This document shows, one piece after another, positions 13,612 through 55,793 of a stretch of DNA of 63,244 nucleotides. Location: positions 1-63,244 of IMG/VR virus record IMGVR_UViG_3300021961_009334. One strand, 5' to 3'. The notes beneath the pieces were generated by a model that worked only from the letters and a program-made list of their open reading frames with translations, was not told where the DNA came from and made no database searches. The position numbers and the translations under genes are program-made. This stretch comes from a virus. Taxonomy: Duplodnaviria > Caudoviricetes. Every line of letters starts with the position of its first letter. Positions within the stretch are counted from its first letter, which is position 1.

Positions 13612-16600
13612 ATGGCAAGAAAACAAATAAGATATTATGTGTTTACACCAGGCGGAGTTGGACAAGGTACTGTCAAATTCTCTGGCACATATGAAAAGAA
13701 AGACGTGTTGGTTATATACAACACTACAGACAATATTAACATTTACAATTTTTCAGATGCAGGGTTAGGCGGAACTGTTTCAACTTCTCAGGAAGTTGAT
13801 TCTGATTTTCCACAATCACAGGATGGTATCACTACTATAACACTGGATTATAACACTTCATCTATGAGTGCAGGCGATGAACTGCTGATTTATGTAGAAA
13901 CAGCAGAATTTATCATTAAACCATACGACTTCGGTGTTGATGCTGTTGAGCGTATGAGGGTTTCAAATCCGGAAGCACTACTTGACGCTGACTTCGAATA
14001 CGGTCTCCAAAACACAAAATGGCAGTCAGTAGTTACAGTTTCTGATAGACCCGGACTGTATGAATTTGCTGGATCAGATCTCACACTAGCCGAAGCAGGT
14101 TATGTCACTCATCTTGCCGCTGACAATACCATTGGTTCTACTGGTGATACATCTATCGCTCTTTCCAACCAAGAAACAGGTGACACTCCATGGGCTAATA
14201 ATGATTATGCATTGATCAACACTGTCTCTGGCACAACCAACTATACTACAGCAGCTGTCTCTGGTGCAACCAACAGAACATTCTCTGTGGCATCCTCTAC
14301 AGGATTCACAGCAGGCGACTTTGTGATCATGTACGGAGATCCAGACTCAGGAGATTCTGCTTATGTTGGATCAACCATTGCTACAAACATCACATCCACA
14401 GGTACTACATCTGTGGTATTAGCAAATGGCACAGGTTTTTCAGATGGTGACTACATCATGGTGCAGACAGACACAGCGAATGTGTATGAGATCATGGCTG
14501 TATCTGCCAAGTCAGTAAACACATTGACTGTGACCAGACAGGTGAACGGTTCTAATGCCGCTGGAGCAAACATCACATCAGGTAACACAGCAAAAAGACT
14601 CAACAAGTTGGAGATCGGTAAGATCTTCTCAGTTGATTCTGCCACACAATTAACTATCAACAGAGGTCAGTATAACACCGAACCGCTAGCATCTTATTCA
14701 GCTGGTACTGTGATTGCAGAATTGTCTACCAGCAGAGAACTCATCAAACTAACTTCTACATCTAGAGCAGTAAACGGTGCCCAAACGATTTCAAGAGGTC
14801 AACTAGGAACTTCTGCTCTGTCTTCAGCAGGCGTTGGTTCATTAGTGATTTATATGACTGGTGTGTTTGATAACGGAAATGCTAACGTTCCTCAGATAGG
14901 TGTGCATGTGCCAGCTCATGGTATTGCAGCTGAAACATATATTAGTATCAACGAATTAGCAGACACAGATGCTAATGGTAGATATTTTATACACACATCA
15001 GAAACCAACTATTTCTTTTACTATCCAAAAAGATCCACTGGTCAAACAGCAGGCACGGTTTTGAATACCAATGCAACTTCTATTAGAAAAGCAGGTGTAT
15101 ACACCGGCGCGGCACTGGAACTGGCAGCATCAACTCCTATTGCGTCAGATGGTTCAACACCATCCACAATTACTATTACAACAAAGACAGCACATGGTAT
15201 GCAACCAGGTAACATTATATTAGTTCAGTTAAGTTCAGGAACCAATGCTCAATATGCAGAAGGTTCGTTTACCATCGAGACTATTCCAACTGTTACAACA
15301 TTCACTTACACAGCCAAATCAGGCGCCGCAGTGAGTGGCTCTTTGGCAGGCACAGTGATTGTTAAAGACAACACTTTCTTTGTACACAGACCATTCGATG
15401 GTGGTGTATTGATCGGAACAGGAACTCCATCACATGGATCATTGGCTTCTAGACAGTCAAGAAAATACTTTAGATATCAGTCAGGTAAAGGGTTAGTGTT
15501 CAGCACAGGTTCGATTTTGTGTCCAACTTTTGACATACAATCACTGTCATCTGACTCTACTGGTGCTAACCAAGCCAACATCACAGTGACTGTGGACAGA
15601 TATCATGGTTTGAATGCTGGTGCAACTGTTAACATTTCAGGTATAACCACAGCAGGATGGAACGGCGACTATGTGGTTGAATCTATTGTTTCAGACACAT
15701 CATTTATCATAGAAGCAACAACTCCATTGGATTCAACACAGCCAGAAATGGGTTCAGAGCCGAGAGCAACTGTGAAAAATTGGTATGGATCTTCTGTTCA
15801 ATTAGGTATATTTGATGATCAAAACGGTACATTTTTTGAATATGATGGCGTCAGTGTAAACGTGGTCAAAAGAAGATCTACTCTACAACTTGCAGGTGAA
15901 GTCAGTGTTGAAGCAGATTCAACTCTAGTAACAGGCGATGGTAACTGTAGATTTAGCGAACAGTGTAAAGTATCTGACCAAGTGATTATCAGAGGAATGA
16001 CACACACTGTTCAGCAGATCACAGATAACAACACTATGATTGTTTCTCCTAAATTCAGAGGAAGAAGAAATCAACAGAATGTTAAAATGACACTGATTGA
16101 AGAACAACGTATTCCACAACAACAATGGAACGTGGATAAATGTGACGGCACAGGTCCTTCCGGTTTTGTGTTAGATGTCACAAAGATGCAGATGTTTTTC
16201 ATCGAGTACACATGGTACGGTGCTGGTTACATCCAATATGGCATGAGAGGCCAGGGCGGTAAGTACCTACACTGTCACAGAATCAAGAACAACAACGTGA
16301 ACTACGAAGCATATATGCGTTCAGGTAACACACCTGTAAAATATACTGTGACCAACACAGCAGGAAGGACAAGACTAGTAGGTGATATAGCTTCTGGTGC
16401 TACATCGCTGACTGTTGCGGATGCTACACATTTTCCAACAGCCTCAGTGGCGAATCCCGTGTACATCGGTATCAACAACGAATTGATAAGATACACTGCT
16501 AAGTCAGGCAACAACTTAACTGGTCTAACACGTGGAACTTCTTTAACACAATGGTCAGATGGTCAATTGAGAACATTCAGCAAAGGAACATCAGCTGCTC

Positions 16601-17259
16601 ACGCAGATGGTGATGGTGTGTATCTAATAGGTAACACTTGTACACCGACTGTGTCACACTGGGGTTCGGCGTTGATCATGGACGGTGGTTTCCAAACAGA
16701 CAGAGGTTACAACTTCACAATCAACGTGCAAAACTTCTCAACTTCAGGTTCAGCAGATAGAACAATCATCGTGATGAGATTGGCTCCATCAGTTTCTAAC
16801 TCGATTGTGGGAGATATTGGTGATAGAGACTTAATTAACAAAGCACAGTTGCTTCTAAACTTCTTAAGAATCAACGTGTCAGGTCGAAGATATCTAATCA
16901 CAGGCGAATTGAACTCCACTAACATCGACGCAGAAGCCACACAATGGCAGGGATTAGACAACGAGGCGAACGGTTTCCAACCATCCTTCGTGCAGTATGC
17001 TGATCCAAACCAAGTAGCATGGACTGATGGTGGCATCGCAGCCACAGGTGGTGAGCGTGTGTTTGCGATACCGGTCAACACTACAAACTCTGGTACACTG
17101 GATCTGTCACAGATTAAAGAATTGGCAGCATCAGCTATTCCTGGAAGAAACGTATACCCAGACGGTCCTGAAACATTGGCGATTAATATCCGACCAACAA
17201 CAAGATCGGGTTCAGGTCAGTGTGACGTGCAGATATCATTCCAAGAAACACAAGCATAA
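13612..17259 (+). CDS. Large virion structural protein (tail fibre/baseplate-associated)
   Basis: 1215 aa S/T/G-rich beta protein; DADFEYGLQ.TKW, RYQSGKG, YTWYGAG motifs. Confidence 0.75.
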   Translation: MARKQIRYYVFTPGGVGQGTVKFSGTYEKKDVLVIYNTTDNINIYNFSDAGLGGTVSTSQEVDSDFPQSQDGITTITLDYNTSSMSAGDELLIYVETAEFIIKPYDFGVDAVERMRVSNPEALLDADFEYGLQNTKWQSVVTVSDRPGLYEFAGSDLTLAEAGYVTHLAADNTIGSTGDTSIALSNQETGDTPWANNDYALINTVSGTTNYTTAAVSGATNRTFSVASSTGFTAGDFVIMYGDPDSGDSAYVGSTIATNITSTGTTSVVLANGTGFSDGDYIMVQTDTANVYEIMAVSAKSVNTLTVTRQVNGSNAAGANITSGNTAKRLNKLEIGKIFSVDSATQLTINRGQYNTEPLASYSAGTVIAELSTSRELIKLTSTSRAVNGAQTISRGQLGTSALSSAGVGSLVIYMTGVFDNGNANVPQIGVHVPAHGIAAETYISINELADTDANGRYFIHTSETNYFFYYPKRSTGQTAGTVLNTNATSIRKAGVYTGAALELAASTPIASDGSTPSTITITTKTAHGMQPGNIILVQLSSGTNAQYAEGSFTIETIPTVTTFTYTAKSGAAVSGSLAGTVIVKDNTFFVHRPFDGGVLIGTGTPSHGSLASRQSRKYFRYQSGKGLVFSTGSILCPTFDIQSLSSDSTGANQANITVTVDRYHGLNAGATVNISGITTAGWNGDYVVESIVSDTSFIIEATTPLDSTQPEMGSEPRATVKNWYGSSVQLGIFDDQNGTFFEYDGVSVNVVKRRSTLQLAGEVSVEADSTLVTGDGNCRFSEQCKVSDQVIIRGMTHTVQQITDNNTMIVSPKFRGRRNQQNVKMTLIEEQRIPQQQWNVDKCDGTGPSGFVLDVTKMQMFFIEYTWYGAGYIQYGMRGQGGKYLHCHRIKNNNVNYEAYMRSGNTPVKYTVTNTAGRTRLVGDIASGATSLTVADATHFPTASVANPVYIGINNELIRYTAKSGNNLTGLTRGTSLTQWSDGQLRTFSKGTSAAHADGDGVYLIGNTCTPTVSHWGSALIMDGGFQTDRGYNFTINVQNFSTSGSADRTIIVMRLAPSVSNSIVGDIGDRDLINKAQLLLNFLRINVSGRRYLITGELNSTNIDAEATQWQGLDNEANGFQPSFVQYADPNQVAWTDGGIAATGGERVFAIPVNTTNSGTLDLSQIKELAASAIPGRNVYPDGPETLAINIRPTTRSGSGQCDVQISFQETQA

Positions 17260-24342: not shown

Positions 24343-26562
24343 CTATTTTAATATTTCAAATTCTTTAGTTTCCTTGTTGTAAGATACAGTGAGTATTTGG
24401 TCGATTATACCTTCGAACAATAATTTTTTACTTAACGGTAATTTAATTCTGGTATTAATTACTCTCTGCAATGGTCTTGCACCCATCTTAGAATCAAATC
24501 CTTCTTCGATTAATTGTTCTTTTGCTGTGTCGTCTAGTTTCACAACAATCCGTTTGTTTTCCATCTGTTTGTTTAATTCATTAACAAACTTGCCAACTAT
24601 ATCAATCATTACACCTTTTTCTAATGCTTTAAATCTCAACACAGCATCCAGTCTGTTTCTAAATTCTGGAGAAAAAAAGTTATTGATATCAATTTCTCCG
24701 TCATGATTGTTGTTTTCCATAAAACCTAATGTGTTTGATTGCATATCTTCTGCTCCTAGATTAGATGTTAACAGTATAATAGAGTTAGATAGATTAACTT
24801 TTTTACCGTTAGACGCTGTGATACTTGCATCGTCCATGGCTTGTAATAATATGGTCATTACATCTCGGTGTGCTTTTTCAACTTCGTCGAACAGTAACAC
24901 ACAATTAGGATGTTTTTCTAGTTCATTAATTAATTGTCCTGAACCTGTTTGACCGTCATCATAGCCAACGTAACCTGGAGGAGCACCAATCAGTTTGGCA
25001 ACAGAATGTTTCTCTTGGTATTCTGACATGTCAAATTTTAATAATGGTAGATTCAATCCGTCTGCTAGTTTTCTTGCTGTTTCAGTTTTACCACAACCAG
25101 TTGGTCCCACGCAAAGAAATGATCCTATGGGTTTGTTTTCTTGCTTCAATCCCGCTTGAGCAACCAAAACTGTATCCACTAACTTGTCTATTACTTCGTC
25201 TTGGCCAAACACTTGTGATTTTATCAATTTACCAAGGTGTTCGAGTGATTCAGTTTTTGTTTGTACTATTGATTCAAATTTAATGCCAGATATTTTCGAA
25301 ATTTGTTCTTGTATATCTTTTAAATCTACATCTCTAAATGCATCAAAAATTTTAGATTTAGCACATGCACGATCTAATACATCTATTGACTTATCAGGCA
25401 ATTGTCTATCAGTAATATACTTTACACTTAAATCAACACTAGATTCAATAGCAGTTTGAGTAATCTGTACTTTATGATAATTCTCGAACTGTTCTTTGAG
25501 CCCATACATAATTTGTTTGGCATGTTCTATAGATGGTTCCTCTATATTGACTTTGGCAAATCTTCTCATCAAAGCACGATCCTTTTCAAAGTGTTTACGA
25601 TATTCTTCCCAAGTAGTTGATGCAATTACTTTTAAGTCACCTCTAGCTAAGTGTGGTTTTAATAAATTTGCTAAATCAACTCCACCCTGGCCACCAGATC
25701 CTGCTCCATGCATCATGTGTGCTTCATCTATAAACATAATTGCTTTGTTATTTTTTTCTAATACACCTAACAAAACTTTTAATCTTTCTTCAAAATCGCC
25801 TCTGTATTTTGATCCAGCAATCAAACTACCAACATCTACAGAATAAATTATATGATCTTTGATCACATCTGGTACTTGATTTTTTACAATCATATGAGCT
25901 AATCCTTCAGCCACAGCAGTTTTACCTACACCCGGATCACCTATCATTATTACATTGTTTTTAATCTTTCTACCGAGCACAAGAGTAATTTCGTCTACTA
26001 CATCTTGTCTGCCTATACAAGTGAACGTTTTATTTTGTTTGGCTTGCTCGTTTAGATTAACTGTGTATTGTTGCAATATTTTTGATGCTTGTTTAGAACT
26101 CACATGTGTATTTTCTTCTGTTGTTCCTAATTCGGTTTCTGTCATAAAATCAACGATATGTTTTTTTGTTAGTCCGTGCTTTGCCATATAGAAAACAGCA
26201 TGGGAATTTTTTTCTGCATACATAGAACTTAAAAGATTAAGTGTCCCGACAGTTTCTTGTCCTGCAAATATAGCTTGTGTAAATGCACGATTTACCATCC
26301 TATCAATGGACTGTGTTCTTTTAGGAAAAATATCATCTTTTGTTTTAATTTCGTTCATGTTGTTTTCTATATGATTTTTTAATTCTGTTACTAAATCTCC
26401 GTATTTTATAGAAGAATTATTTTTACATAAATCACTTAATTCAGAAGATCCCAATAACACTAAAAGTAAATGTTCTAAAGTAATATATTCGTGTTTATTC
26501 TCTCTTGCTAGTTTTACAGCATCGTCAAAGATGTTTTTTAATTGTCCATCAGGTTCTATCAT
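24343..26562 (-). CDS. clpA: ClpA/ClpB-type Hsp100 AAA+ chaperone
   Basis: Clp N domain; GDPGVGKT and GPTGCGKT Walker A; FIDEAH, FDEVEKAH; LGF loop; GARPL. Confidence 0.9.
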   Translation of the reverse strand: MIEPDGQLKNIFDDAVKLARENKHEYITLEHLLLVLLGSSELSDLCKNNSSIKYGDLVTELKNHIENNMNEIKTKDDIFPKRTQSIDRMVNRAFTQAIFAGQETVGTLNLLSSMYAEKNSHAVFYMAKHGLTKKHIVDFMTETELGTTEENTHVSSKQASKILQQYTVNLNEQAKQNKTFTCIGRQDVVDEITLVLGRKIKNNVIMIGDPGVGKTAVAEGLAHMIVKNQVPDVIKDHIIYSVDVGSLIAGSKYRGDFEERLKVLLGVLEKNNKAIMFIDEAHMMHGAGSGGQGGVDLANLLKPHLARGDLKVIASTTWEEYRKHFEKDRALMRRFAKVNIEEPSIEHAKQIMYGLKEQFENYHKVQITQTAIESSVDLSVKYITDRQLPDKSIDVLDRACAKSKIFDAFRDVDLKDIQEQISKISGIKFESIVQTKTESLEHLGKLIKSQVFGQDEVIDKLVDTVLVAQAGLKQENKPIGSFLCVGPTGCGKTETARKLADGLNLPLLKFDMSEYQEKHSVAKLIGAPPGYVGYDDGQTGSGQLINELEKHPNCVLLFDEVEKAHRDVMTILLQAMDDASITASNGKKVNLSNSIILLTSNLGAEDMQSNTLGFMENNNHDGEIDINNFFSPEFRNRLDAVLRFKALEKGVMIDIVGKFVNELNKQMENKRIVVKLDDTAKEQLIEEGFDSKMGARPLQRVINTRIKLPLSKKLLFEGIIDQILTVSYNKETKEFEILK

Positions 26563-34235: not shown

Positions 34236-34326
34236 AGTATTATATTTATCAAACTTACAAATACTCACAAATTTTTAATAATACTAACATATTAATAACC
34301 TTTTTGCACTCATTAAATAAAACTGT

Positions 34327-42274: not shown

Positions 42275-42293
42275 TTACAGTATTTATGGAAAA

Positions 42294-42318
42294 TAGTGGG
42301 TGCGTAAAACACCCACTA
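42294..42318 (-). terminator. Hairpin terminator after 42331..42807
   Basis: TAGTGGGTG / CACCCACTA 9-bp inverted repeat, TTTT after it on the minus strand. Confidence 0.7.
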
Positions 42319-42330
42319 CAGTGTAGTATA

Positions 42331-42807
42331 TTATACAGAATCGATAGTGACGTGACCAGATAGTTTGGTTTCGTCTGTGCCTTCTGTTGTATTAAGTTCG
42401 TAGCCAGTTCCAGCTGTGATTACATTATTAATCGGTGCTGAACCTGTGTTACCAGCAACATCCACATAGTGTACAGTTCTTTTGTAGAATCTTGTGATGA
42501 ATACTACAGTTGAATCGTCTAGCACACCTCTTACACAAAAAGTGCCGTTTACGTCAAGATCAGAGGCAGCTGTAAGAGCAGTTCCTGATGAATCATAGCC
42601 TTTTAATGTGTAAACTGCTTCTGTTGAATCTTCTAGATGAATCTTGAATCTGTTTGATCCTCTTTGATTAACAATATAAGCAGTTGTTGATGAAGTTGTT
42701 GAACCACCTGTTCTATAACCAGTTACAGCGATTTTTTTCTGTGTACCTATTCCGCCAGCTGGATAATTTGAGCCAACGAAGTAAGATTTTGATATAGGTC
42801 TTCCCAT
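42331..42807 (-). CDS. Putative abundant virion protein
   Basis: MGRPISKSYF, YIVNQRGSNRF; SD AAGGAG; own late promoter and terminator. Confidence 0.7.
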   Translation of the reverse strand: MGRPISKSYFVGSNYPAGGIGTQKKIAVTGYRTGGSTTSSTTAYIVNQRGSNRFKIHLEDSTEAVYTLKGYDSSGTALTAASDLDVNGTFCVRGVLDDSTVVFITRFYKRTVHYVDVAGNTGSAPINNVITAGTGYELNTTEGTDETKLSGHVTIDSV

Positions 42808-42828
42808 TATGTTCTCCTTTTGTTTTAT

Positions 42829-42903
42829 GTCCAACGTGGGTTCTAGCCACTACGCGGAGGATATTACCGCATAAGTCTTGCTTCAAGGCAAGCTCTATTA
42901 GAC
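42829..42903 (-). ncRNA. Candidate structured leader RNA (four-way junction)
   Basis: GUCUAAU/GUUGGAC closing stem around three hairpins; begins just downstream of TAAATA (42908-42913). Confidence 0.55.
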
Positions 42904-42929
42904 TGTGTATTTAATTAAAAAATGCTAGT

Positions 42930-43976
42930 TTATTCTAGTGTGCTATAAAGATAATTTTGCCTTTTTGCAAAGTCGCCACATTGTTTAAAACATTCATTTG
43001 CATGATAAGGTTGACCATAAATCCAACTTTTTTGTAGCAAGAAATTGTAATAATCGTGTTGTAAAATTTGTTCAATTGAATTCACATGTACATTGTTCCA
43101 ATTAACTCCATAGTCTTTTTCTAATTCTTTGATCCATGGAAGTTCATCAAAGTGATAATCTGTACTAAACCAACAACAAGGCCAGAGTTTTCCACTCCAA
43201 TCTATGAAAATTTCTTTTTTGTGTAACATCAAACAATTAATGGTGTTAGCCATTTCTGTATCAACATCTTTGTGTTTCCAATTTTTCACTTTATCATGTT
43301 CTGGATGTTTAAAATCTTCATCTGTCGAAATAGTTTGATTGACAACAACTGTTTGATCTTTTAATTTTGTTTTTACTGAAGATTGCCAATCTTTAATATT
43401 ACGAGTATTTTGTCTAAAGTACAAAGGGATTTTAAGTTTTTTTGAAATAAGTTTTGCATTTTCTATGTCAGATTTATTGTGCTGAAAAATCAAATAGTGC
43501 CATTCGCAGACTCCTCCTTGTTCAACATATGCGGTCATGTTTTCTAAAACCTTATTCCATTGCACATTTACTCTATACAAATGATTAGTGTTTTCACAAC
43601 CATCGACACTGAATATCATTTTTATTGCGTTAGACTGTTCTGAAAGTTTTCCTATTTGAGCAAATATTTCTGCCTTATTAGAACCTGTATTTGTATTAAT
43701 TTCAATCTCTCCGTGGTTTGCAACAATATACTCGCAAATGGAAACTATGTCCTTTACCATCATTGGTTCGTCTACTACACCACCCAGAGTAAAAGATTTA
43801 TTTTTGACTATGTTCTTTGGGAAAATTTTTTTAAAATCATCTATACTCCACTCCATTAATTGTTTTTTAAGATATGGATGAGTATCTCCATTTTGCGTCC
43901 TAGAACAGCCAGGACATCGTGCATTACATTTGTTTGTTAACTCTGTATGTATAATTTGAATATCGTCTATAATCAT
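42930..43976 (-). CDS. Radical SAM/SPASM-twitch protein
   Basis: CNARCPGC, GGVVDEP, FSVDG, WPCC, CFKQC. Confidence 0.9.
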   Translation of the reverse strand: MIIDDIQIIHTELTNKCNARCPGCSRTQNGDTHPYLKKQLMEWSIDDFKKIFPKNIVKNKSFTLGGVVDEPMMVKDIVSICEYIVANHGEIEINTNTGSNKAEIFAQIGKLSEQSNAIKMIFSVDGCENTNHLYRVNVQWNKVLENMTAYVEQGGVCEWHYLIFQHNKSDIENAKLISKKLKIPLYFRQNTRNIKDWQSSVKTKLKDQTVVVNQTISTDEDFKHPEHDKVKNWKHKDVDTEMANTINCLMLHKKEIFIDWSGKLWPCCWFSTDYHFDELPWIKELEKDYGVNWNNVHVNSIEQILQHDYYNFLLQKSWIYGQPYHANECFKQCGDFAKRQNYLYSTLE

Positions 43977-45034
43977 GTAAATTTATATCTCTGTCTAGAT
44001 CCTTGATTACCACAAGTTCTAAAACATGTTTTAGCATGGTATTTTGCTCCTGGCATCCAAGACTGTTCAAGAAGTTTATTATAATATGAATGATTTAAAA
44101 TATCAATTATAGAATGATGATGTAAACTATTCCATGTTATTCCAAAATCGTTATCCATTTGAGTCAAATACTGGTTTTCTAAAATTGTTTTGCCAAAATT
44201 ATAATCATTAGCAAACCAACAACAAGGCCATAGTCTTTGTTGCCAATCAATAAAAATTTCTTTTTGATGTAAACACACACAATGAATTGTTTTAAAATCT
44301 TCTAAGGATTGAGGTTCTAATTTATTGTCTCTTTTAAGTTGTATTTGTTTGTGTTCAAATCTAGCATCATATGTTGGTTCGACTAGATGTGTTGAAAGTT
44401 TTAATTCTCCATTTTGTTTGCTATAAACATGTGCTGTGTAAGGTTCTGTATTTCTCATATTTTGTCTAACCTTAAATGTTATTCCAAGACTGTTAGCTAA
44501 AATTTTTGCATCGTCTATGTCATCAATATTATGCTTAAATGCAAGATAATGCCATTCACAGTGGCCTCCTTGTTTAGCGTATGCTGTCATGTTTTCTAAA
44601 ACCTTATTCCATTTAACATTAATTCTGTATAAATGGTTTGTGTGTTCAAGGCCATCTACACTAAAAAACATTTTTAATCTATTGGTTTGTTTTGAAAGTT
44701 CTCCAAGTTTTTTAAATGTTTCTGCTGTATTACATCCTGTATTAGAAAAAATTTCTAAACTTCCGTTATTTGAAATAATATAATCTGCAATTTCATATAT
44801 TTGTGAATGCATCATTGGTTCATCGACAGTGCCTCCCAGTGTAAACATTTTTCCATCTATAAAAGTCTCAACAGGAAAAACTTGTTTGAATCTTTCCAAA
44901 CTCCATTCTGTGAGATTATTTTCTAAACTAGGATGAGTTTTTCCTTGGTAGGTACGAGCGCAGCCAGGACATCTAGCATTACATTTGTTTGTAATTTCTA
45001 CATGAATAGCAACAATTTCTTCAGCAGTTATCAT
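43973..45034 (-). CDS. Radical SAM/SPASM-twitch protein (paralog of neighbour)
   Basis: CNARCPGC, GGTVDEP, WPCC, CFRTC. Confidence 0.9.
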   Translation of the reverse strand: MITAEEIVAIHVEITNKCNARCPGCARTYQGKTHPSLENNLTEWSLERFKQVFPVETFIDGKMFTLGGTVDEPMMHSQIYEIADYIISNNGSLEIFSNTGCNTAETFKKLGELSKQTNRLKMFFSVDGLEHTNHLYRINVKWNKVLENMTAYAKQGGHCEWHYLAFKHNIDDIDDAKILANSLGITFKVRQNMRNTEPYTAHVYSKQNGELKLSTHLVEPTYDARFEHKQIQLKRDNKLEPQSLEDFKTIHCVCLHQKEIFIDWQQRLWPCCWFANDYNFGKTILENQYLTQMDNDFGITWNSLHHHSIIDILNHSYYNKLLEQSWMPGAKYHAKTCFRTCGNQGSRQRYKFT

Positions 45035-46266
45035 TGTAGTAAATGATCATATTCAGGATAAATGTCTAGGAATTTTTTTGGTCTAGTAGCATCAAAATAT
45101 TGTACCATGTGTTGAAAATACTTTTTAGTTCGTGAATCCATAATCTTTGTAGGTTCGTTGATCAACCAATTGTGCCATTCTACATTTTCGCTCAATTCTT
45201 TGTCTTGAAGTTGTTTGATTGAATCTGTAATTTCATTGTAAATTTTCTGTCTTTCTTCTATAGGACAGTAAGAAAATCTCAAAGGTTCTGGTGTGTCTAA
45301 AACAGTTAAATCAAAAGCAATAGAATAAGTGTTGGCAAAATCTAAAAGTTTAGGTAAACCTTTAATATTGAGGAGTTGCATGGTTGGTTCTAAATTTAAT
45401 GAAAACTGTGGAAACTGACGAGCAATTTTATTAATTCTAATTATTTTGTCTTGTAACACTGACCAAACACTAGGATATCTCACATATTCTAATATGTCTT
45501 CTGTAGCATCTAAACTAATACCTAAAATAACTTTTTTGAATTTAGTTAGGTACTGTTCTATAAATGATTCTTTGATCACTGTACCGTTTGAAATTATGTG
45601 TAAGGTTATATGGCTGCTTTTATCTGCATCAACTAATTTTTTGATTAATTTGTCAAAACCTTTCATCACAAAAGGCTCTCCGCCAACTGCCCATATTTCT
45701 TCAGTGTGTTCGGCATGATCTACAATATGTTGTACAAATTTTTCATTGTAATTAAAATCCGAAGATGAATATTCTTCTACGGGCCATTCTGTAGAATAAA
45801 GGTTATCGGTATTTGTTTGATTGAATTGTAACATATTTTTTGCTATTTGATTGCTTAGTTGTGGTCTACACATTACACATTGTAAATTACATTCGTTGCT
45901 CATTCTTAAACTTAAACTAAGAGGAGATGGAACAATGGTGGTTGGATTATTGTAATAGTATTCGGTAAGTTTGTTAAATTTTTTATTCTCGTATATTCTT
46001 GATGAAATCATCCCTTGTTTTTCCCGTTCGATACAAATTCTGCAAATATCACTAGGCATTTTCCGTTCATTAAATGATTGTCTTAATTTTTGAAATGTTT
46101 CGCCATTCCAAATGTTTTCTACACTATTTTTAAGAACACTCAGTTCAGGTGAAATGGTTTGTTGTGAATCACAACACGCTCTCATTTGGGATTGTGTAGA
46201 CACAAACATTTTTACAAATGGATGTACACAAAAATTATCGTAACTATCTTCAGGTCTCGATGACAT
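45031..46266 (-). CDS. Radical SAM protein with N-terminal twitch domain
   Basis: CVHPF...RACC, CRIC, CNLQCVMC, VGGEP, ISNGT. Confidence 0.9.
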   Translation of the reverse strand: MSSRPEDSYDNFCVHPFVKMFVSTQSQMRACCDSQQTISPELSVLKNSVENIWNGETFQKLRQSFNERKMPSDICRICIEREKQGMISSRIYENKKFNKLTEYYYNNPTTIVPSPLSLSLRMSNECNLQCVMCRPQLSNQIAKNMLQFNQTNTDNLYSTEWPVEEYSSSDFNYNEKFVQHIVDHAEHTEEIWAVGGEPFVMKGFDKLIKKLVDADKSSHITLHIISNGTVIKESFIEQYLTKFKKVILGISLDATEDILEYVRYPSVWSVLQDKIIRINKIARQFPQFSLNLEPTMQLLNIKGLPKLLDFANTYSIAFDLTVLDTPEPLRFSYCPIEERQKIYNEITDSIKQLQDKELSENVEWHNWLINEPTKIMDSRTKKYFQHMVQYFDATRPKKFLDIYPEYDHLLQ

Positions 46267-46311: not shown

Positions 46312-47592
46312 TTATCCAGTGTATCTATCTAGATGCCAACCACCGTTAGAAAATAATATTGTTGCTAGGGTTCTTTTAGCCACAGTGGAATCTCCATCTT
46401 GACCGATAAATGGGTACCATTCATAACTAGACATCAATGTTCCATCATTTGGATTTCTAACATTGGCTATAGTAATTTTTGTTGTAGCTAAATTTGTAAA
46501 ATCCGATCCTGCAGGAATAAAATACATGACTTGTCCATCGTTACCATTGGCTAAAGTGTAACCACCTTCTCCGGCTGCAATCGAATGCACTGTGGTCGAT
46601 GTACTGAGAGCAGTTGTGCTTGTGCCCATATTATCTACTACTGCAAAAACTGTATCAGCAGTCACAGACAAATTACCTCCAACTTGTAGGTTACTTGCAA
46701 CAGCTACAACTCCTTGCAGTTGTATTTGAGTTGAATCTAATGCTTCTATAGAACTGGTTTTCAAAACGCCTTGTACATCGATTCCACTCACACATACTAT
46801 CGATGTTGAATCATTAGATTGCATCATTTCTGTGTATAGTTCTTTAGCGGTTAAATTGCCCTGTACACTTAAATCTGTATTGATAGTTAATTGAGCAGAA
46901 TCGCCACATGTGATTACACTAGTGTCTATATTGGCAGAATAAATTCCACCTGTCACAGATAATGCATCGCTGATAGTAACAGCAGATGAATCTTCTGAAC
47001 TGATTGTGTTAACCAATATAGTGCCAGTCACTTGTAGTGTATCTGATACTAAAACTCTTGAAGAATCTGAACTGCTGATTGTGTTCACAGATACTGTGTC
47101 ACTTTCGATGTTTGCCACAATGGTTGCTGTGCTAGAGTCGGTTACTGATGTTGCTGTAGCAGCTGAAGTTGATAGCACTGCTTTAAACTTATCGTCGCCT
47201 TCGTTCCAATAAAACACAGCATTGTTGCCAGCTCCGCCACGTTGAATATACATACCAGCATCAATATCCCCACCAGAGGAGTTTCTATTGAATTCTACTA
47301 GATTGTCTTCTACTTGCATCACAGTTGCGTTAACCTGAGTGCTTGAGCCTTTTACTTCCAAATCTGCATTGATGATAACTTTCCCAGTTCCATTCGGATC
47401 CAGCTCTATATCGCCGTTGGTGTTATCGCTTATAATTGAATTGCCTGAAAAGCCTAAATTAGAAGGAGTTGATCCTCCCAGTTCATTGTATATTTCATCA
47501 AAATTATCGTTAATTTTATCAAATGCCGTTCTTAGCGGATCACCTGTGCCGTCATTGGCCGATGTTCCTAGATTAATTGTTTGTTTTGCCAT
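46312..47592 (-). CDS. Tail fibre/baseplate-attached protein
   Basis: INLG..ANDGTGDPLRTAFDKINDNF anchor; five DS-containing repeats. Confidence 0.75.
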   Translation of the reverse strand: MAKQTINLGTSANDGTGDPLRTAFDKINDNFDEIYNELGGSTPSNLGFSGNSIISDNTNGDIELDPNGTGKVIINADLEVKGSSTQVNATVMQVEDNLVEFNRNSSGGDIDAGMYIQRGGAGNNAVFYWNEGDDKFKAVLSTSAATATSVTDSSTATIVANIESDTVSVNTISSSDSSRVLVSDTLQVTGTILVNTISSEDSSAVTISDALSVTGGIYSANIDTSVITCGDSAQLTINTDLSVQGNLTAKELYTEMMQSNDSTSIVCVSGIDVQGVLKTSSIEALDSTQIQLQGVVAVASNLQVGGNLSVTADTVFAVVDNMGTSTTALSTSTTVHSIAAGEGGYTLANGNDGQVMYFIPAGSDFTNLATTKITIANVRNPNDGTLMSSYEWYPFIGQDGDSTVAKRTLATILFSNGGWHLDRYTG

Positions 47593-47649: not shown

Positions 47650-47931
47650 ATGTATATCAAAGAAACCACCGAAATACACCTACATCAGCGTGAAAGCAAG
47701 TTAGGAAATGTTCACAATTTCAAAAGACGCAGGACTGTGTATCATTTCCGTTGTGATGCTTGTCATAAAGAGTTTCTTAGAGACAAAGCCAAAGTATCCC
47801 CCAAACGAGCTACAAATGATTTTCATCATGTGTGCACCAAGTGTGATGTGCATAGATATGCCCAAAAGGTAGGAGTTGAAATGCGAAAGATTTGGTCGAT
47901 TGATGCTAGTAGTACAGAAGTGAAACTTTAG
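47650..47931 (+). CDS. Zn-ribbon protein
   Basis: CDAC...CTKC, basic. Confidence 0.7.
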   Translation: MYIKETTEIHLHQRESKLGNVHNFKRRRTVYHFRCDACHKEFLRDKAKVSPKRATNDFHHVCTKCDVHRYAQKVGVEMRKIWSIDASSTEVKL

Positions 47932-49859
47932 TTTAAATCAGTCCATACGCCATTCACATACCCGCGGAACTTGTGAGTGGATGAATTGTAGTACATCATG
48001 CCATTTACTCCTGCAGGATCGGAAGTATCTGTGTATAACACTGTGGCAGTACCAAAAAGAATGTTGCCTGTGCCTTGAGCAGAAATGTTTAAATCTTCGT
48101 TGGATGTTCCCGAAGTGATTGTGTCTGCAATCACAGAACCTTGAACTGTGTGATCGCCGAATGTGGTTGCTCCTGTTGAACTGGTGCCAAACTTTTTGGC
48201 ATTATCATAATACAGATCCACAGAACCATCTCTGTTACAATACACAGATGCTTCTGAGTTGAATGTTTGAATAAAAATATTATTAGTAGATTTCAGATAC
48301 AAATCGCCTGTGTTTGAATGTTGAACAAAACTGTTGTTTCCATCATTACTAATAGATAGATCACTGTTAGCACCAAACTTAGCAGATGTAGAACTGGTAT
48401 GCTGTGTGTTACTGTTAAACTGTATGACACCAGTACCATTGGCAGATACATCAAGATTTTGATTGGATGCATAAGAACTGATGGTGTCAGTAAACACAGA
48501 TCCTTGAGTTACAAAATCAGAAGTCATTGAAATATTGCCATTGACCTGTAGACTTTGACCTACTAGAATTTGTGCAGAATCATCAGACGTAATTTTGCTA
48601 GTAAAAATTTGATCAGACACATACAAGTTACCGCCGATGTTCATGTCGTCTATAATTTGAATAGCTGCAGAATCTTCTGATCGAATTACATTAGTATCTA
48701 TGGTATCTACCGCCAGTGTGCCTGAAATATTAACACTGTCGTTTATTTGTACCGCAGTCGAATCCGAAGATGAAATATTATTTGTAACAACATCTGCACC
48801 TGATTGATGATAGGTAGAAAGATTAGGACCTGTGATAGTAAGAGTATCACCAGTAATTGCAGCTGTTACGTTTTGTGTGCCCACAATGTTTAGTGTACCA
48901 CCGTTGTTAACAGTAGTTGTACTAGAACCAGAATCTCCAAAAATAATAGATGTTGAAGTAAGATATGATGATAGATCAGGACCTGTTATTGTTAATACAT
49001 CGCCGCTCACTGCGGTTGTAACATTCTGAGTGCCGGCAATTTTAAATATTTCGCCTATGTTTACACTTGTGCCAGTTGAATCATCGCCTACTAGAGTTAT
49101 AGCACTATCGGTGTTCTGTACATAATTTGTTAAATTCGGCCCTGTAATAGTAAGAGTATCTCCTGTGATGGCAGCTGTGAGATTTTGCGTACCTACAATG
49201 TTTAATGTACCACCATTGTTTATGGTAGTTGTGTTAGATCCAGAATCTCCAAAAATTATAGATGTAGAAGTAAGATATGACGATAGATCAGGTCCTGTGA
49301 TAGTAAGAGTGTCTCCAGCCACACTAGCTGTTACGTTTTGAGTACCTAATACATTTAAAGTGTCATCTAAACTTAAACTGATTTCGTTAGATGCATTATC
49401 GCCAATGGTTAATGTGTTGGCGCCACCAATCTGTGAATCCACATAAGCTTTGATTGATTGCTGTGTGGCCAGTGCTGTGTCTGAGTCTGAAGACATGGTG
49501 TCCTCATCAAGAATAGTATTAACAGATGATCCACCATCAAAAGTAAAACTGCCTGTTACAAGTAATCCATCGTCCACTGTGACAAAAGCAGAGTCATTTG
49601 ATTTAATTTTGTTTACATTAAAATCTGCATTGGCGTAGATAACACCGGTGCCATTGGGAGTAAAATTAATGTCTCCATTTGTCGTATCTGATATTAGAGC
49701 AGAACCAGAAAATGCCAGTGAAGATAATGTAGATCCATCATCGGTGAGTTCATTATAGAGTTCAGTAAAGTTATCATTTACTTTGTCAAATGCCTGTCTG
49801 ACTGTGTCAGCATTAGAATCGTTGACACTAGCTCCGATGTTAATAAATTTTTTTCCCAT
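47928..49859 (-). CDS. Tail fibre protein with internal tandem repeats
   Basis: Same N-terminal anchor; LATQQSIKAYVD; four ~50-aa GTQNVT..TGD.LTITGP.L repeats; C-terminal GMMYYNS...FRGY. Confidence 0.8.
   Translation of the reverse strand: MGKKFINIGASVNDSNADTVRQAFDKVNDNFTELYNELTDDGSTLSSLAFSGSALISDTTNGDINFTPNGTGVIYANADFNVNKIKSNDSAFVTVDDGLLVTGSFTFDGGSSVNTILDEDTMSSDSDTALATQQSIKAYVDSQIGGANTLTIGDNASNEISLSLDDTLNVLGTQNVTASVAGDTLTITGPDLSSYLTSTSIIFGDSGSNTTTINNGGTLNIVGTQNLTAAITGDTLTITGPNLTNYVQNTDSAITLVGDDSTGTSVNIGEIFKIAGTQNVTTAVSGDVLTITGPDLSSYLTSTSIIFGDSGSSTTTVNNGGTLNIVGTQNVTAAITGDTLTITGPNLSTYHQSGADVVTNNISSSDSTAVQINDSVNISGTLAVDTIDTNVIRSEDSAAIQIIDDMNIGGNLYVSDQIFTSKITSDDSAQILVGQSLQVNGNISMTSDFVTQGSVFTDTISSYASNQNLDVSANGTGVIQFNSNTQHTSSTSAKFGANSDLSISNDGNNSFVQHSNTGDLYLKSTNNIFIQTFNSEASVYCNRDGSVDLYYDNAKKFGTSSTGATTFGDHTVQGSVIADTITSGTSNEDLNISAQGTGNILFGTATVLYTDTSDPAGVNGMMYYNSSTHKFRGYVNGVWTDLN
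48820..49400 (-). repeat. About four tandem ~150-bp coding repeats
   Basis: Recurring gatagtaagagt..c, gatagatcagg and ccagaatctccaaaaat segments; boundaries approximate. Confidence 0.75.
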
Positions 49860-50593: not shown

Positions 50594-50606
50594 ACTAATA
50601 TTTAAA

Positions 50607-54295: not shown

Positions 54296-54323
54296 ATTAT
54301 AGTTGAAGTTAAGATTTTGTCAA
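54296..54323 (-). promoter_or_regulatory. Sigma70 consensus promoter TTGACA-N16-TATAAT, 6 nt before ATG
   Basis: Perfect hexamers upstream of uvsE. Confidence 0.8.
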
Positions 54324-55793
54324 CACATGAACACCATACTTGTTTGTCCAATCTTTGGCGTCTTGTTCGTTGTTGACCATGGGTTTGCCTTTGATGTTCA
54401 AAGAAGTATTCAATAACATAGGACATCCGGTCTTGGCGTACCATGCTTCTAACAGTGCTCTGAAACCCGGAGAATCGTTTTTACCCACAGTTTGTATGCG
54501 TGATGTATTGTCCACATGCACTATGGCAGGAAACTCTTCTGGACGTTTACACACCGCTGTATACTGCATATAAGGACTCTGTGTGCCTATTGTAGATGTG
54601 TCGAAGTAATCTGACACATATTCCTCCAATATGGCCGGAGCGAAAGGTCTGAACTCTTGTCTATGTTTGATTGCATTTACTGTGTCCTTGATGTCGGGTC
54701 CTCTTGGATCTGCCAGCAATGATCTATGACCTAATGCTCTAGGTCCAAATTCTGCCCGACCATTTGCAACTCCAACTATTTTTTGTGTTTCTAATTTATT
54801 AATTAATCCATTAACAGGATATTCACCTTGTATATCATAACCAAGATAAGGACCTGGCCATTCAATTCTACCTATTTCATCCAACACACAACCTATGGAA
54901 GATCCTGCATCTCCAGGATTAGGCACAATCCATACATTATTATAATATTTTTTTGCAATCGGATTGGCCACACAGTTTAGAGCACAGCCTCCAACCAAAA
55001 CAAGGTTGGCGGAAGGTTGTGTCATTTTGGCATGTTTGATGATGCGTTCAAAATTTTCTTCATACAGTGCTTGGGTAGTCGCCGCCAGATCACACAAATC
55101 TTGAATGGTGTTTGCTTCAGGCAACCATGTTTGACAACCTCTATGTAAATTGATATTATATTTGGTATCAAATCCTTCGTTATCATAAGCAAAGAAATTT
55201 CGTTTCATCTCGCCATAGTATTTGATTGGTGACCCCAATGCACTCATCCCCATAAGAATATATTCTTCTTCATTGGGTTTGAAATGTACTCGTTGTGTCA
55301 TAGCAGAATACCATAGTCCTATAGAGTGAGGATAATTTTGACTGTAGACTTTTTTTAATTTATTGTCATAACCTTGCCAAACTGTAAGACATTCCCATTC
55401 TCCTATAGAATCTATTACAACTACAGTTGCATCTTTGTAAACACTTGTAAAGTAACCAGCCGCCGCATGACTGCGGTGGTGTGAATGCATCTTAATAGGT
55501 ATGCCTTTGATATTGAAATCTGTTAGGTGAGATTTAATAGATGGTTTGTTGAACACCAAATCCCATTGTCCCGCCCATGCTTGTCTAGTTTTTTTAATCC
55601 AGTTATTTTCGTAAAAATGAATTTGTTTAGGATAACCAAATTTTAATGCATCATCAATTATTAATTGATTAAGCCATTTATCGTTTTTTATACCCGAATA
55701 TCTTTCCGCATGGCTGGCAAATACTAATTTTTGATCATCGAATACGGCAAGCGCCGCATCATGAGCCATTGCTGATATGCCCCACCTAATCAT
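54309..55793 (-). CDS. Carbamoyltransferase (NodU/CmcH family)
   Basis: HDAA, HHRSHAA, GGCALN, GRAEFGPRALG.RS, FRPFAP, LNTSLN. Confidence 0.93.
   Translation of the reverse strand: MIRWGISAMAHDAALAVFDDQKLVFASHAERYSGIKNDKWLNQLIIDDALKFGYPKQIHFYENNWIKKTRQAWAGQWDLVFNKPSIKSHLTDFNIKGIPIKMHSHHRSHAAAGYFTSVYKDATVVVIDSIGEWECLTVWQGYDNKLKKVYSQNYPHSIGLWYSAMTQRVHFKPNEEEYILMGMSALGSPIKYYGEMKRNFFAYDNEGFDTKYNINLHRGCQTWLPEANTIQDLCDLAATTQALYEENFERIIKHAKMTQPSANLVLVGGCALNCVANPIAKKYYNNVWIVPNPGDAGSSIGCVLDEIGRIEWPGPYLGYDIQGEYPVNGLINKLETQKIVGVANGRAEFGPRALGHRSLLADPRGPDIKDTVNAIKHRQEFRPFAPAILEEYVSDYFDTSTIGTQSPYMQYTAVCKRPEEFPAIVHVDNTSRIQTVGKNDSPGFRALLEAWYAKTGCPMLLNTSLNIKGKPMVNNEQDAKDWTNKYGVHVLTKS

Follow-up and report, generated by a model that had tools for sequence, protein, structure and literature searches.

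The stretch of DNA considered here, referred to as the window, is the 63,244-nucleotide record IMGVR_UViG_3300021961_009334 of IMG/VR, from a virus of the Caudoviricetes (Duplodnaviria). From position 42903 to 42829, its minus strand carries a 75-nucleotide (nt) RNA element, which reads directly as GUCUAAUAGAGCUUGCCUUGAAGCAAGACUUAUGCGGUAAUAUCCUCCGCGUAGUGGCUAGAACCCACGUUGGAC and lies in the leader of an open reading frame (ORF) for a protein of 158 amino acids (aa) that starts with the residues MGRP (42331..42807, ATG at 42807-42805). An earlier note, made from the sequence alone, had described the element as a 7-base-pair (bp) closing stem around three hairpins; the letters were read exactly, and the minimum free energy (MFE) structure given by RNAfold, a four-way junction of the same composition at -23.3 kcal/mol, agrees. 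The 5' strand of the closing helix, GUCUAAU (42897..42903), would also provide the first nucleotides of the transcript, and pairs with the 3' strand GUUGGAC (42829..42835); both strands are placed by the MFE, by pair counts and by the variants of this helix in relatives. Enclosed between them are the P1 hairpin CUUGC(CUUGAA)GCAAG (42877..42892, from the Rfam alignment), the P2 hairpin UAUGCGG(UAAUAUCCU)CCGCGUA with its U.G wobble (42851..42873, from the Rfam alignment and pair counts), and the P3 hairpin GUGG(CUAGAAC)CCAC (42836..42850, from the MFE and the Rfam alignment), which adjoins the closing helix directly. Stem and loop sizes of the three hairpins are 5/6, 7/9 and 4/7, and the sequence AUAAAAC flanks the element on its 3' side.

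The placement of the element between a promoter-like motif and a ribosome binding site, also given in the earlier note, holds as well. Its first G, at 42903, stands 4 nt past the TAAATA at 42908..42913, a late-promoter-like -10 element (TTAAATAC in the window). At the other end, the junction stops 10 nt upstream of the Shine-Dalgarno (SD) sequence AAGGAG (42814..42819), which lies 6 nt before the ATG and is predicted to be open from its unpaired probability. Past the MGRP stop codon, an 11-bp hairpin followed by UUUCC (42293..42319, fold z -2.56) has a terminator-like appearance. As for the fold itself, the 75-nt element has a z of -2.78, with 3 of 200 dinucleotide shuffles folding equally well, and in a 146-nt context the MFE keeps the junction, the z of this longer stretch being just -1.21.

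That the fold goes beyond chance is indicated by its match to a curated family. A scan of the entire 63-kb window with Rfam 15 places RF02980, the freshwater-2 motif (type Cis-reg), at 42805..42893 on the minus strand, from P1 through the AUG, with 60.3 bits against a gathering score of 49.9 (E 1.1e-6 for the whole window), and RF02980 is the sole family above its gathering score. The match spans model positions 1-84 of 84. The three hairpins are P1, P2 and P3 of the consensus, with the sequence-specific UAUGCGG/CCGCGUA of P2 and the (C)UAGAAC loop of P3 both present, and the two pairs flagged as non-standard in the alignment are both in P1. After P3, model and window again share the 'uugga' tail, the AAGGAG and the AUG. 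The difference between them concerns the closing stem, which lies outside the Rfam model. The consensus begins at P1 and is unpaired from the end of P3 through 'uugga', AAGGAG and AUG, whereas in the clade of the window this conserved tail forms the 3' strand of the helix, pairing with 5' nucleotides upstream of model position 1. The Infernal/Rfam search that had been proposed as a check thus identifies a known family rather than an orphan RNA. It is nearly certain that the element is a genuine freshwater-2 member, and it is therefore an instance of a catalogued, functionally uncharacterised family, not a new kind of RNA.

To our knowledge, and in the descriptions given by Rfam and Wikipedia, freshwater-2 has been recorded in aquatic metagenomes only, in no classified organism, and upstream of genes without known domains. 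The MGRP gene of the window and its relatives fit this picture as far as domains and cultured phages are concerned. Full-text literature searches for 'freshwater-2' and 'RF02980' returned nothing relevant to the function of the motif, relevance to RNA being judged by title and abstract. The motif comes from a survey of 224 candidate RNAs (Weinberg et al. 2017, PMC5737381); the word 'freshwater' is absent from the main text of that paper, and the motif is presumably described in its supplements.

Linkage to the MGRP gene and conservation of the hairpins

The freshwater-2 element is tied one-to-one to the MGRP gene family, as is apparent from retrieval in both directions. In all 12 viral loci that were found through the MGRP protein, RF02980 scores 65-73 bits and ends exactly at the ATG. 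A DNA pattern search of IMG/VR for P2 yielded at least 120 stretches; the loci collected in all contain 133 matches to the pattern, 123 of them followed by an MGRP-starting ORF and 4 being obvious chance occurrences in GC-rich DNA. Conversely, a retrieval by protein profile alone gave 80 loci, 73 of which carry the exact P2 sequence UAUGCGG...CCGCGUA; in another six, P2 is altered on both strands with pairing kept (UAUGCAG/CUGCGUA four times, UAUGGGG/CCUCGUA twice). The single remaining locus (L266) has no freshwater-2 leader, and about 30 nt upstream of position 401 there is instead a terminator-like run and then TATAAATA, which eight bases separate from the ATG. The leader can thus be lost and replaced by a leaderless arrangement. 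The MGRP codons themselves were considered as a part of the RNA motif, an idea that was rejected since their synonymous sites vary.

True freshwater-2 elements with an MGRP gene were also seen on four contigs of metagenome-assembled genomes (MAGs; L311, L313, L315 and L316), binned as Vampirovibrionales, Haliscomenobacter (a 183-kb contig), Legionellales and Rickettsiales, and three other pattern matches of this kind are chance. These contigs are no evidence of host, as they may be mis-binned phage contigs or prophages.

The three hairpins are conserved in different ways. Leaders were divided into class A and class B, the first scan comprising 104 unique leaders of which 64 are class B. In an alignment of 40 unique class-A leaders, all seven P2 pairs are invariant, including the U.G wobble, and in P3 three of the four pairs covary with 100% of the cells paired. 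The sequence of P1 varies among relatives and its pairing is retained. Every alignment and leader table shows length variation in the loop that joins the two arms of P2, and the P3 loop closes to a GAGAA pentaloop in sister groups. The varying spacing of the P2 arms, the fixed U.G pair and the two-sided changes that keep pairing together indicate that P2 and P3 are features of the RNA. Three further features were entertained and rejected: a pseudoknot of a 5' GUUC with the GAAC of the P3 loop (the window and class B have GUC plus variable bases), a conserved upstream ORF from the AUG within P2 (frame and stop shift with loop length), and a pairing of CC in the P2 loop with GG in the tail (absent from the group of L010).

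The closing helix and the 5' end of the message

A helix that encloses P1 through P3 is found in the MFE structures of all 56 unique leaders of the window's clade in the protein-retrieved set, and about nine different combinations of strands form it, among them GUCUAAU/GUUGGAC, GUUCAA/UUGGAC, GUCU/GGAC, GUCAAA/UUUGGC, GUUGUCU/GGACAAU and CAGAGC(C)/(G)GCUCUG. The last of these also occurs extended by GUUC/GAAC, and a further closing pair, GAGCCAA/UUGGCUC, was read by eye in the MFE of one leader of the first-scan set (L108). Across the 40 class-A leaders, 77.5% of the closing-helix cells are paired and three pairs vary one-sidedly. When the 5' 12 nt are shuffled, the helix forms in 394 of 1120 trials (35%), compared with 55 of 56 leaders observed at four or more pairs.

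The 5' strand of this helix stands where the transcript would begin. A GUC or GUU begins 4-6 nt after a conserved TAAATA in 84 of the 104 unique leaders, the motif reading TTAAATA in the window and (G/A)ATAAATA in relatives. TAAATA resembles the late promoter of phage T4, TATAAATA, and a start about 6 nt downstream fits the arrangement at T4 late promoters. Within the window, ATAAATA is rarer than expected (14 occurrences against 28 +/- 5), the coding strand carries 13 of the 14, and ORFs of at least 80 aa begin with their ATG 5-9 nt downstream of no fewer than 10 TAAATA sites (TAAATA at 50604, 50275, 42286, 34248, 29897, 24052, 20075, 9539 and 4611 on the minus strand and at 34314 on the plus strand). 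The strand bias, the depletion and this TAAATA-N5-9-ATG arrangement argue that TAAATA is a real signal in this genome, as far as can be judged from sequence. Since the arrangement recurs in many genes, much of the late transcription of this phage looks leaderless, and as it makes sense only with a start about 6 nt past TAAATA, the start of the MGRP message is predicted there as well, at 42903 +/- 2. With such a start, the first nucleotides of the message would be the 5' strand of the closing helix. The GUC appears to belong to the RNA element and not to the promoter, because the other TAAATA sites in the window are without a following GUC. The MGRP gene is exceptional in that 100 nt separate its TAAATA from its ATG.

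The gene also looks like a transcription unit of its own, because the terminator-like hairpin follows its stop codon and the next ATAAATA (42281-42287) comes right after; a consensus terminator scan did not call the hairpin at 42293..42319. In the window the SD is accessible, with a mean unpaired probability of 0.94 over the four SD-core bases scored (a GGAG/GAGG/AGGA match), and neither the folded leader of the window nor the subgroup to which it belongs has an anti-SD sequence. Among 119 class-A leaders the SD is closed in 48, intermediate in 27 and open in 44; in class B it is open in 45 of 65 leaders. In the MFE structures of L010, L009, L021, L022, L140 and their relatives, a CUCCU or CUUCU situated right after the closing-helix strand GGA pairs with AAGGAG.

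Proposed role of the leader and its alternatives

Taken together, the position, linkage and conservation of the element suggest that it is probably a cis-acting leader at the very 5' end of a monocistronic late MGRP mRNA, which would combine protection of that end with recognition by a factor. In this proposal, the first 7 nt of the late transcript (GUCUAAU) would pair with the 7 nt after P3 (GUUGGAC), enclosing P1-P3, and as the closing helix would thereby use up the first seven nucleotides, the 5' end of the message would be buried in the four-way junction. A buried end may shield a highly expressed late mRNA from decay that depends on the 5' end. The nearly invariant P2 with its U.G wobble, together with the P3 loop (N)AGAAC, may offer a sequence-specific surface to a trans-acting factor that tunes translation. 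These components differ in strength. That the element is a cis-acting leader working at the RNA level is very probable; that protection of the 5' end contributes is a tentative suggestion, and that a protein or ribosome-associated factor reads P2/P3 is put forward with equal reserve. The reading of the element as a cis-regulatory or mRNA-stabilising leader, offered in the earlier note among other options, is supported by its membership in a curated Cis-reg family, its single linked gene family and its position between TAAATA and SD.

A number of observations weigh against the proposal of combined protection and recognition. Two-sided covariation in the closing helix is thin, being found at two of seven pairs, one of them contributed by a group of leaders (group f) in which the 5' base takes part in P1, and the seventh pair is missing from all but 6 of 39 sequences. 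A control in which leaders exchange their 5' ends has little power to discriminate: 1376 of 1866 combinations still close, because most of the strands are mutually compatible. In group g (39 unique leaders) the helix is just 3 bp long, GUC/GAC or GUC/GGC, and in group f it either competes with P1 or fails to form. Class B, which makes up 64 of the 104 leaders of the first scan, keeps the 5' GUC without a 3' partner for it, a 3-bp P3 being followed directly by the SD region, and in many class-B MFE structures the 5' end is single-stranded. A plain stabiliser, for its part, would not require an invariant P2. In one metatranscriptome run (word share 0.05), the contigs found are those of relatives only, less than 90% alike, and extend into the leader to 42878 without its 5' end, and they may stem from DNA carry-over. 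There is also a sigma-70-like match inside the element, TGGACA-16-CATAAT (10/12, 42833..42806), the use of which would put the start of transcription downstream of the junction; this match is regarded as chance, being a consensus match only whose start would fall after the ATG. Finally, the factor that binds P2/P3 is hypothetical, the start and the fold are predictions, and an effect on stability or translation is a proposal made from sequence.

As group g, group f and class B lack the full helix that the clade of the window has, the four-way junction, genuine in this clade, elaborates a core of P1, P2 and P3 in a lineage-specific manner. The closing stem reported in the earlier note therefore stands for the window's clade and does not extend to the family as a whole. 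Of seven class-B loci that were scored against the RF02980 cut-off, three pass (55-58 bits) and four fail. Class B (e.g., L041, L049, L109 and L130) also keeps a purine-rich flank, which can in many cases pair with the 5' strand of P1 or with a CCUA in the P3 region, allowing alternative folds, and in minimal class-B variants P1 is reduced to GUC(5 nt)GAC right at the 5' end.

The main competing explanation is that of an autogenous translational operator, in which excess MGRP protein would bind P2/P3 of its own leader and repress or stabilise its own mRNA. Autoregulatory leaders of this kind are familiar from ribosomal-protein operons, the MS2 coat operator, and T4 gp32 and gp43. Like these, freshwater-2 is a single conserved RNA element that goes with one protein family and sits just upstream of an SD; each genome has one such motif, strictly with one protein family whose members are very divergent, the RNA surface is invariant in sequence, and the MGRP protein has an invariant core motif. 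About 40% of class-A leaders add an anti-SD hairpin beside the junction, and the structural model of the protein, with two predicted beta-barrels, has weak matches that include the KOW, Tudor and SH3-like folds. These fold matches are weak indeed (best Z 4.1), however, basic and acidic residues are about equally numerous in the protein by manual count, its matches in the BFVD point to virion or surface proteins, and RNA binding by MGRP is hypothetical. Unlike the classical operators, moreover, the element of the window is clear of the SD and AUG, its core lying 15-60 nt upstream of an SD that is open. This explanation is thus considered unlikely. A small-molecule riboswitch, with the junction as aptamer and the anti-SD/SD hairpin as expression platform, is improbable. 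A multi-helix junction with highly conserved nucleotides in a family typed Cis-reg would suit a riboswitch, as would the hairpins past the junction that sequester the SD in many sister leaders, but the gene served is late, belongs to a structural module and is non-metabolic, the conserved nucleotides are mostly within a helix and not in the junctions, the SD is open in the window and in most of class B, and the junction architecture is not kept across the family.

Other alternatives assign the element to transcription, to RNA processing or to DNA. In phage HK022, the hairpins of the nascent put RNA bind RNA polymerase at the 5' end of the transcript and render it resistant to terminators. The location of the element directly past a promoter, at what would be the extreme 5' end of its transcript, is reminiscent of this, and the unchanging sequence of the stem in diverse phages would agree with a host partner that is itself conserved. 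The motif, however, extends up to the SD and ATG and goes with a single ORF family instead of marking the starts of operons, and antitermination is disfavoured by the apparently monocistronic gene, as a terminator-like hairpin and the next gene's promoter follow at once; a put-like function therefore seems most improbable. Even less credit can be given to the tRNA mimic or processing site that the earlier note had listed among its options, which would be a target of RNase P, of the CCA-adding enzyme or of some other tRNA-binding factor. In size (75 nt), in its four-way junction and in its 7-bp closing stem, the element does resemble a tRNA, with P3 abutting the stem as a T-arm abuts the acceptor (4 + 7 bp). 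Yet it fails every detector and sequence signature tested. ARAGORN finds no tRNA gene in the window, in accord with the earlier statement that this is not a canonical tRNA, and no tRNA family is found at E<=10 in 42600-43100, where the only matches are freshwater-2 and a weak snoRNA match. The arms (5-8 bp with a 6-nt loop, 7 bp with a 9-nt loop, 4 bp with CUAGAAC) come without CCA, D-loop GG or T-loop UUC, and the 'T-loop-like' loop of the earlier description finds no support, since CUAGAAC is not UUCRANY and sister groups have a GAGAA pentaloop in P3. Most of the family, furthermore, has a closing helix of 3 bp or none, so that the junction is not family-wide, and processing is unlikely because the 5' strand of the closing helix would coincide with the start of the transcript, leaving nothing to cleave. 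Finally, it is scarcely credible that the inverted repeat of P2 is a protein-binding palindrome in the DNA just downstream of the promoter. Both P2 arms are invariant in sequence, as such an operator might require, but the length between the arms varies among relatives, the U.G wobble is a mismatch in DNA, and the rare variants change both arms such that RNA pairing is kept, including a change from C-G to G-U.

The 5'-terminal stem-loops that stabilise messages, such as those of the ompA leader and the T4 gene 32 leader, need structure and not an invariant sequence. Like them, the MGRP leader would place a structure at the very beginning of a highly expressed message, with an open and strong SD after it; it differs from them in that P2 and the P3 loop are invariant in sequence and that class B may leave the 5' end free. 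As a plain stabiliser fails to account for the invariance, and a simple SD switch misfits the window and most of class B, the combination of end protection with factor recognition is favoured. For freshwater-2, hitherto an orphan motif as far as function is concerned, this provides a setting at the 5' end of what would be a late-promoter transcript in relatives of jumbo phages, often directly after the major head gene and ahead of one diverse, unannotated protein family. The additions to the Rfam model are modest, namely a clade-specific fourth helix, a probable position of the transcript start and a phage late-gene context. This setting supplies testable handles on the motif and does not reveal a new kind of RNA. 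A broader and decidedly speculative picture, which is doubtful as a whole, would have an uncultured Rak2-like jumbo clade with mostly leaderless late mRNAs, in which the freshwater-2 junction caps the sole long-leadered message and also serves as the autoregulatory operator of its product, a small tandem beta-barrel protein from the region of late structural genes. If true, the operator reading would couple MGRP synthesis to virion assembly.

The MGRP protein and its genomic setting

For the 158-aa MGRP protein of the window, neither Pfam nor PHROG has a family. Its relatives at E<=0.001 number 675; among the best 120 of these there is likewise no Pfam family, and the few names are 'hypothetical protein' or those of bare gene-call records. 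Only 65 of 143 unique members are BLAST-significant to the protein of the window (22-89% identity), and with the N-terminus masked, BLAST still links all 142 members of more than 60 aa into one component. Eight diverse members have no Pfam or PHROG match above the cut-off; one of them (L041) has a sub-threshold match to DUF6748 (16.5 bits, cut-off 27). The proteins, 117-416 aa in length and otherwise too divergent for BLAST to detect directly, have in common a core that does not vary (e.g., ..AY..Q.GS..F.....DS..) and, with few exceptions, MGRP at the N-terminus.

An AlphaFold (AF2) model of the MGRP protein is all-beta (pLDDT, the predicted local distance difference test, 79.3) and reads as two small beta-barrels. 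Its matches in the BFVD (E 1e-6 to 9e-4, template-modelling score about 0.5) come from uncultured and jumbo phages and are either uncharacterised or named as 'possible surface' proteins, with a weaker row (E 3e-2) named 'major tail protein'. Foldseek against the PDB gave no match to the model at E<=1e-3. With VIA-align, the best Z is that to small SH3/Tudor/KOW-like barrels and is within background, where Z below 8 is common. The Atlas feature scores for the protein, 0.86-0.87, are below the lead threshold of 0.9.

Across the 143 loci surveyed, a single cluster accounts for the upstream neighbour in 34 of 99 cases. Two of its representatives match the major head protein phrog_138 (E 1e-98 to 1e-101), and this head protein shares 65-71% identity with its counterparts in four Rak2-like jumbo phages, namely Sinorhizobium phage Phosso, Vibrio phage 2.275.O, PA5oct and 121Q. 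A search of 50,697 GenBank phage records gave no match to the MGRP protein (tblastn) or to the leader (blastn). The four cultured jumbo relatives, chosen by way of the head protein, have no RF02980 match above the cut-off and no MGRP-starting annotated coding sequence within 2.5 kb downstream of the head gene, and a script scan of their four 6-kb head loci found no ATG-GGN-Arg-CCN start. The gene directly after the head gene in Phosso and 121Q, when compared with the MGRP profile by hhalign, gave probabilities of 0.1-0.5%. A 26-bit RF02980 match in 121Q was rejected, since it lacks the sequence of P2 and consists of two unrelated hairpins with an SD.

The window itself is a viral record estimated to be 18% complete. 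Directly upstream of the element are three consecutive radical-SAM genes (348, 353 and 411 aa, 42930-46266, minus strand), the first and third of which match SPASM, and just downstream is a gene with a He_PIG Ig domain. The MGRP gene stands here in a late region of baseplate/fibre-like character, with baseplate-wedge/fibre-connector N-termini nearby at 46312-47592 and 47928-49859; a virion structural protein is encoded at 13612-17259. Elsewhere on the minus strand, the window encodes a Lon-like ATP-dependent protease (24343-26562, phrog_4871, E 1.5e-236) and a Nol-like carbamoyltransferase (54309-55793, phrog_1601, E 1e-100).

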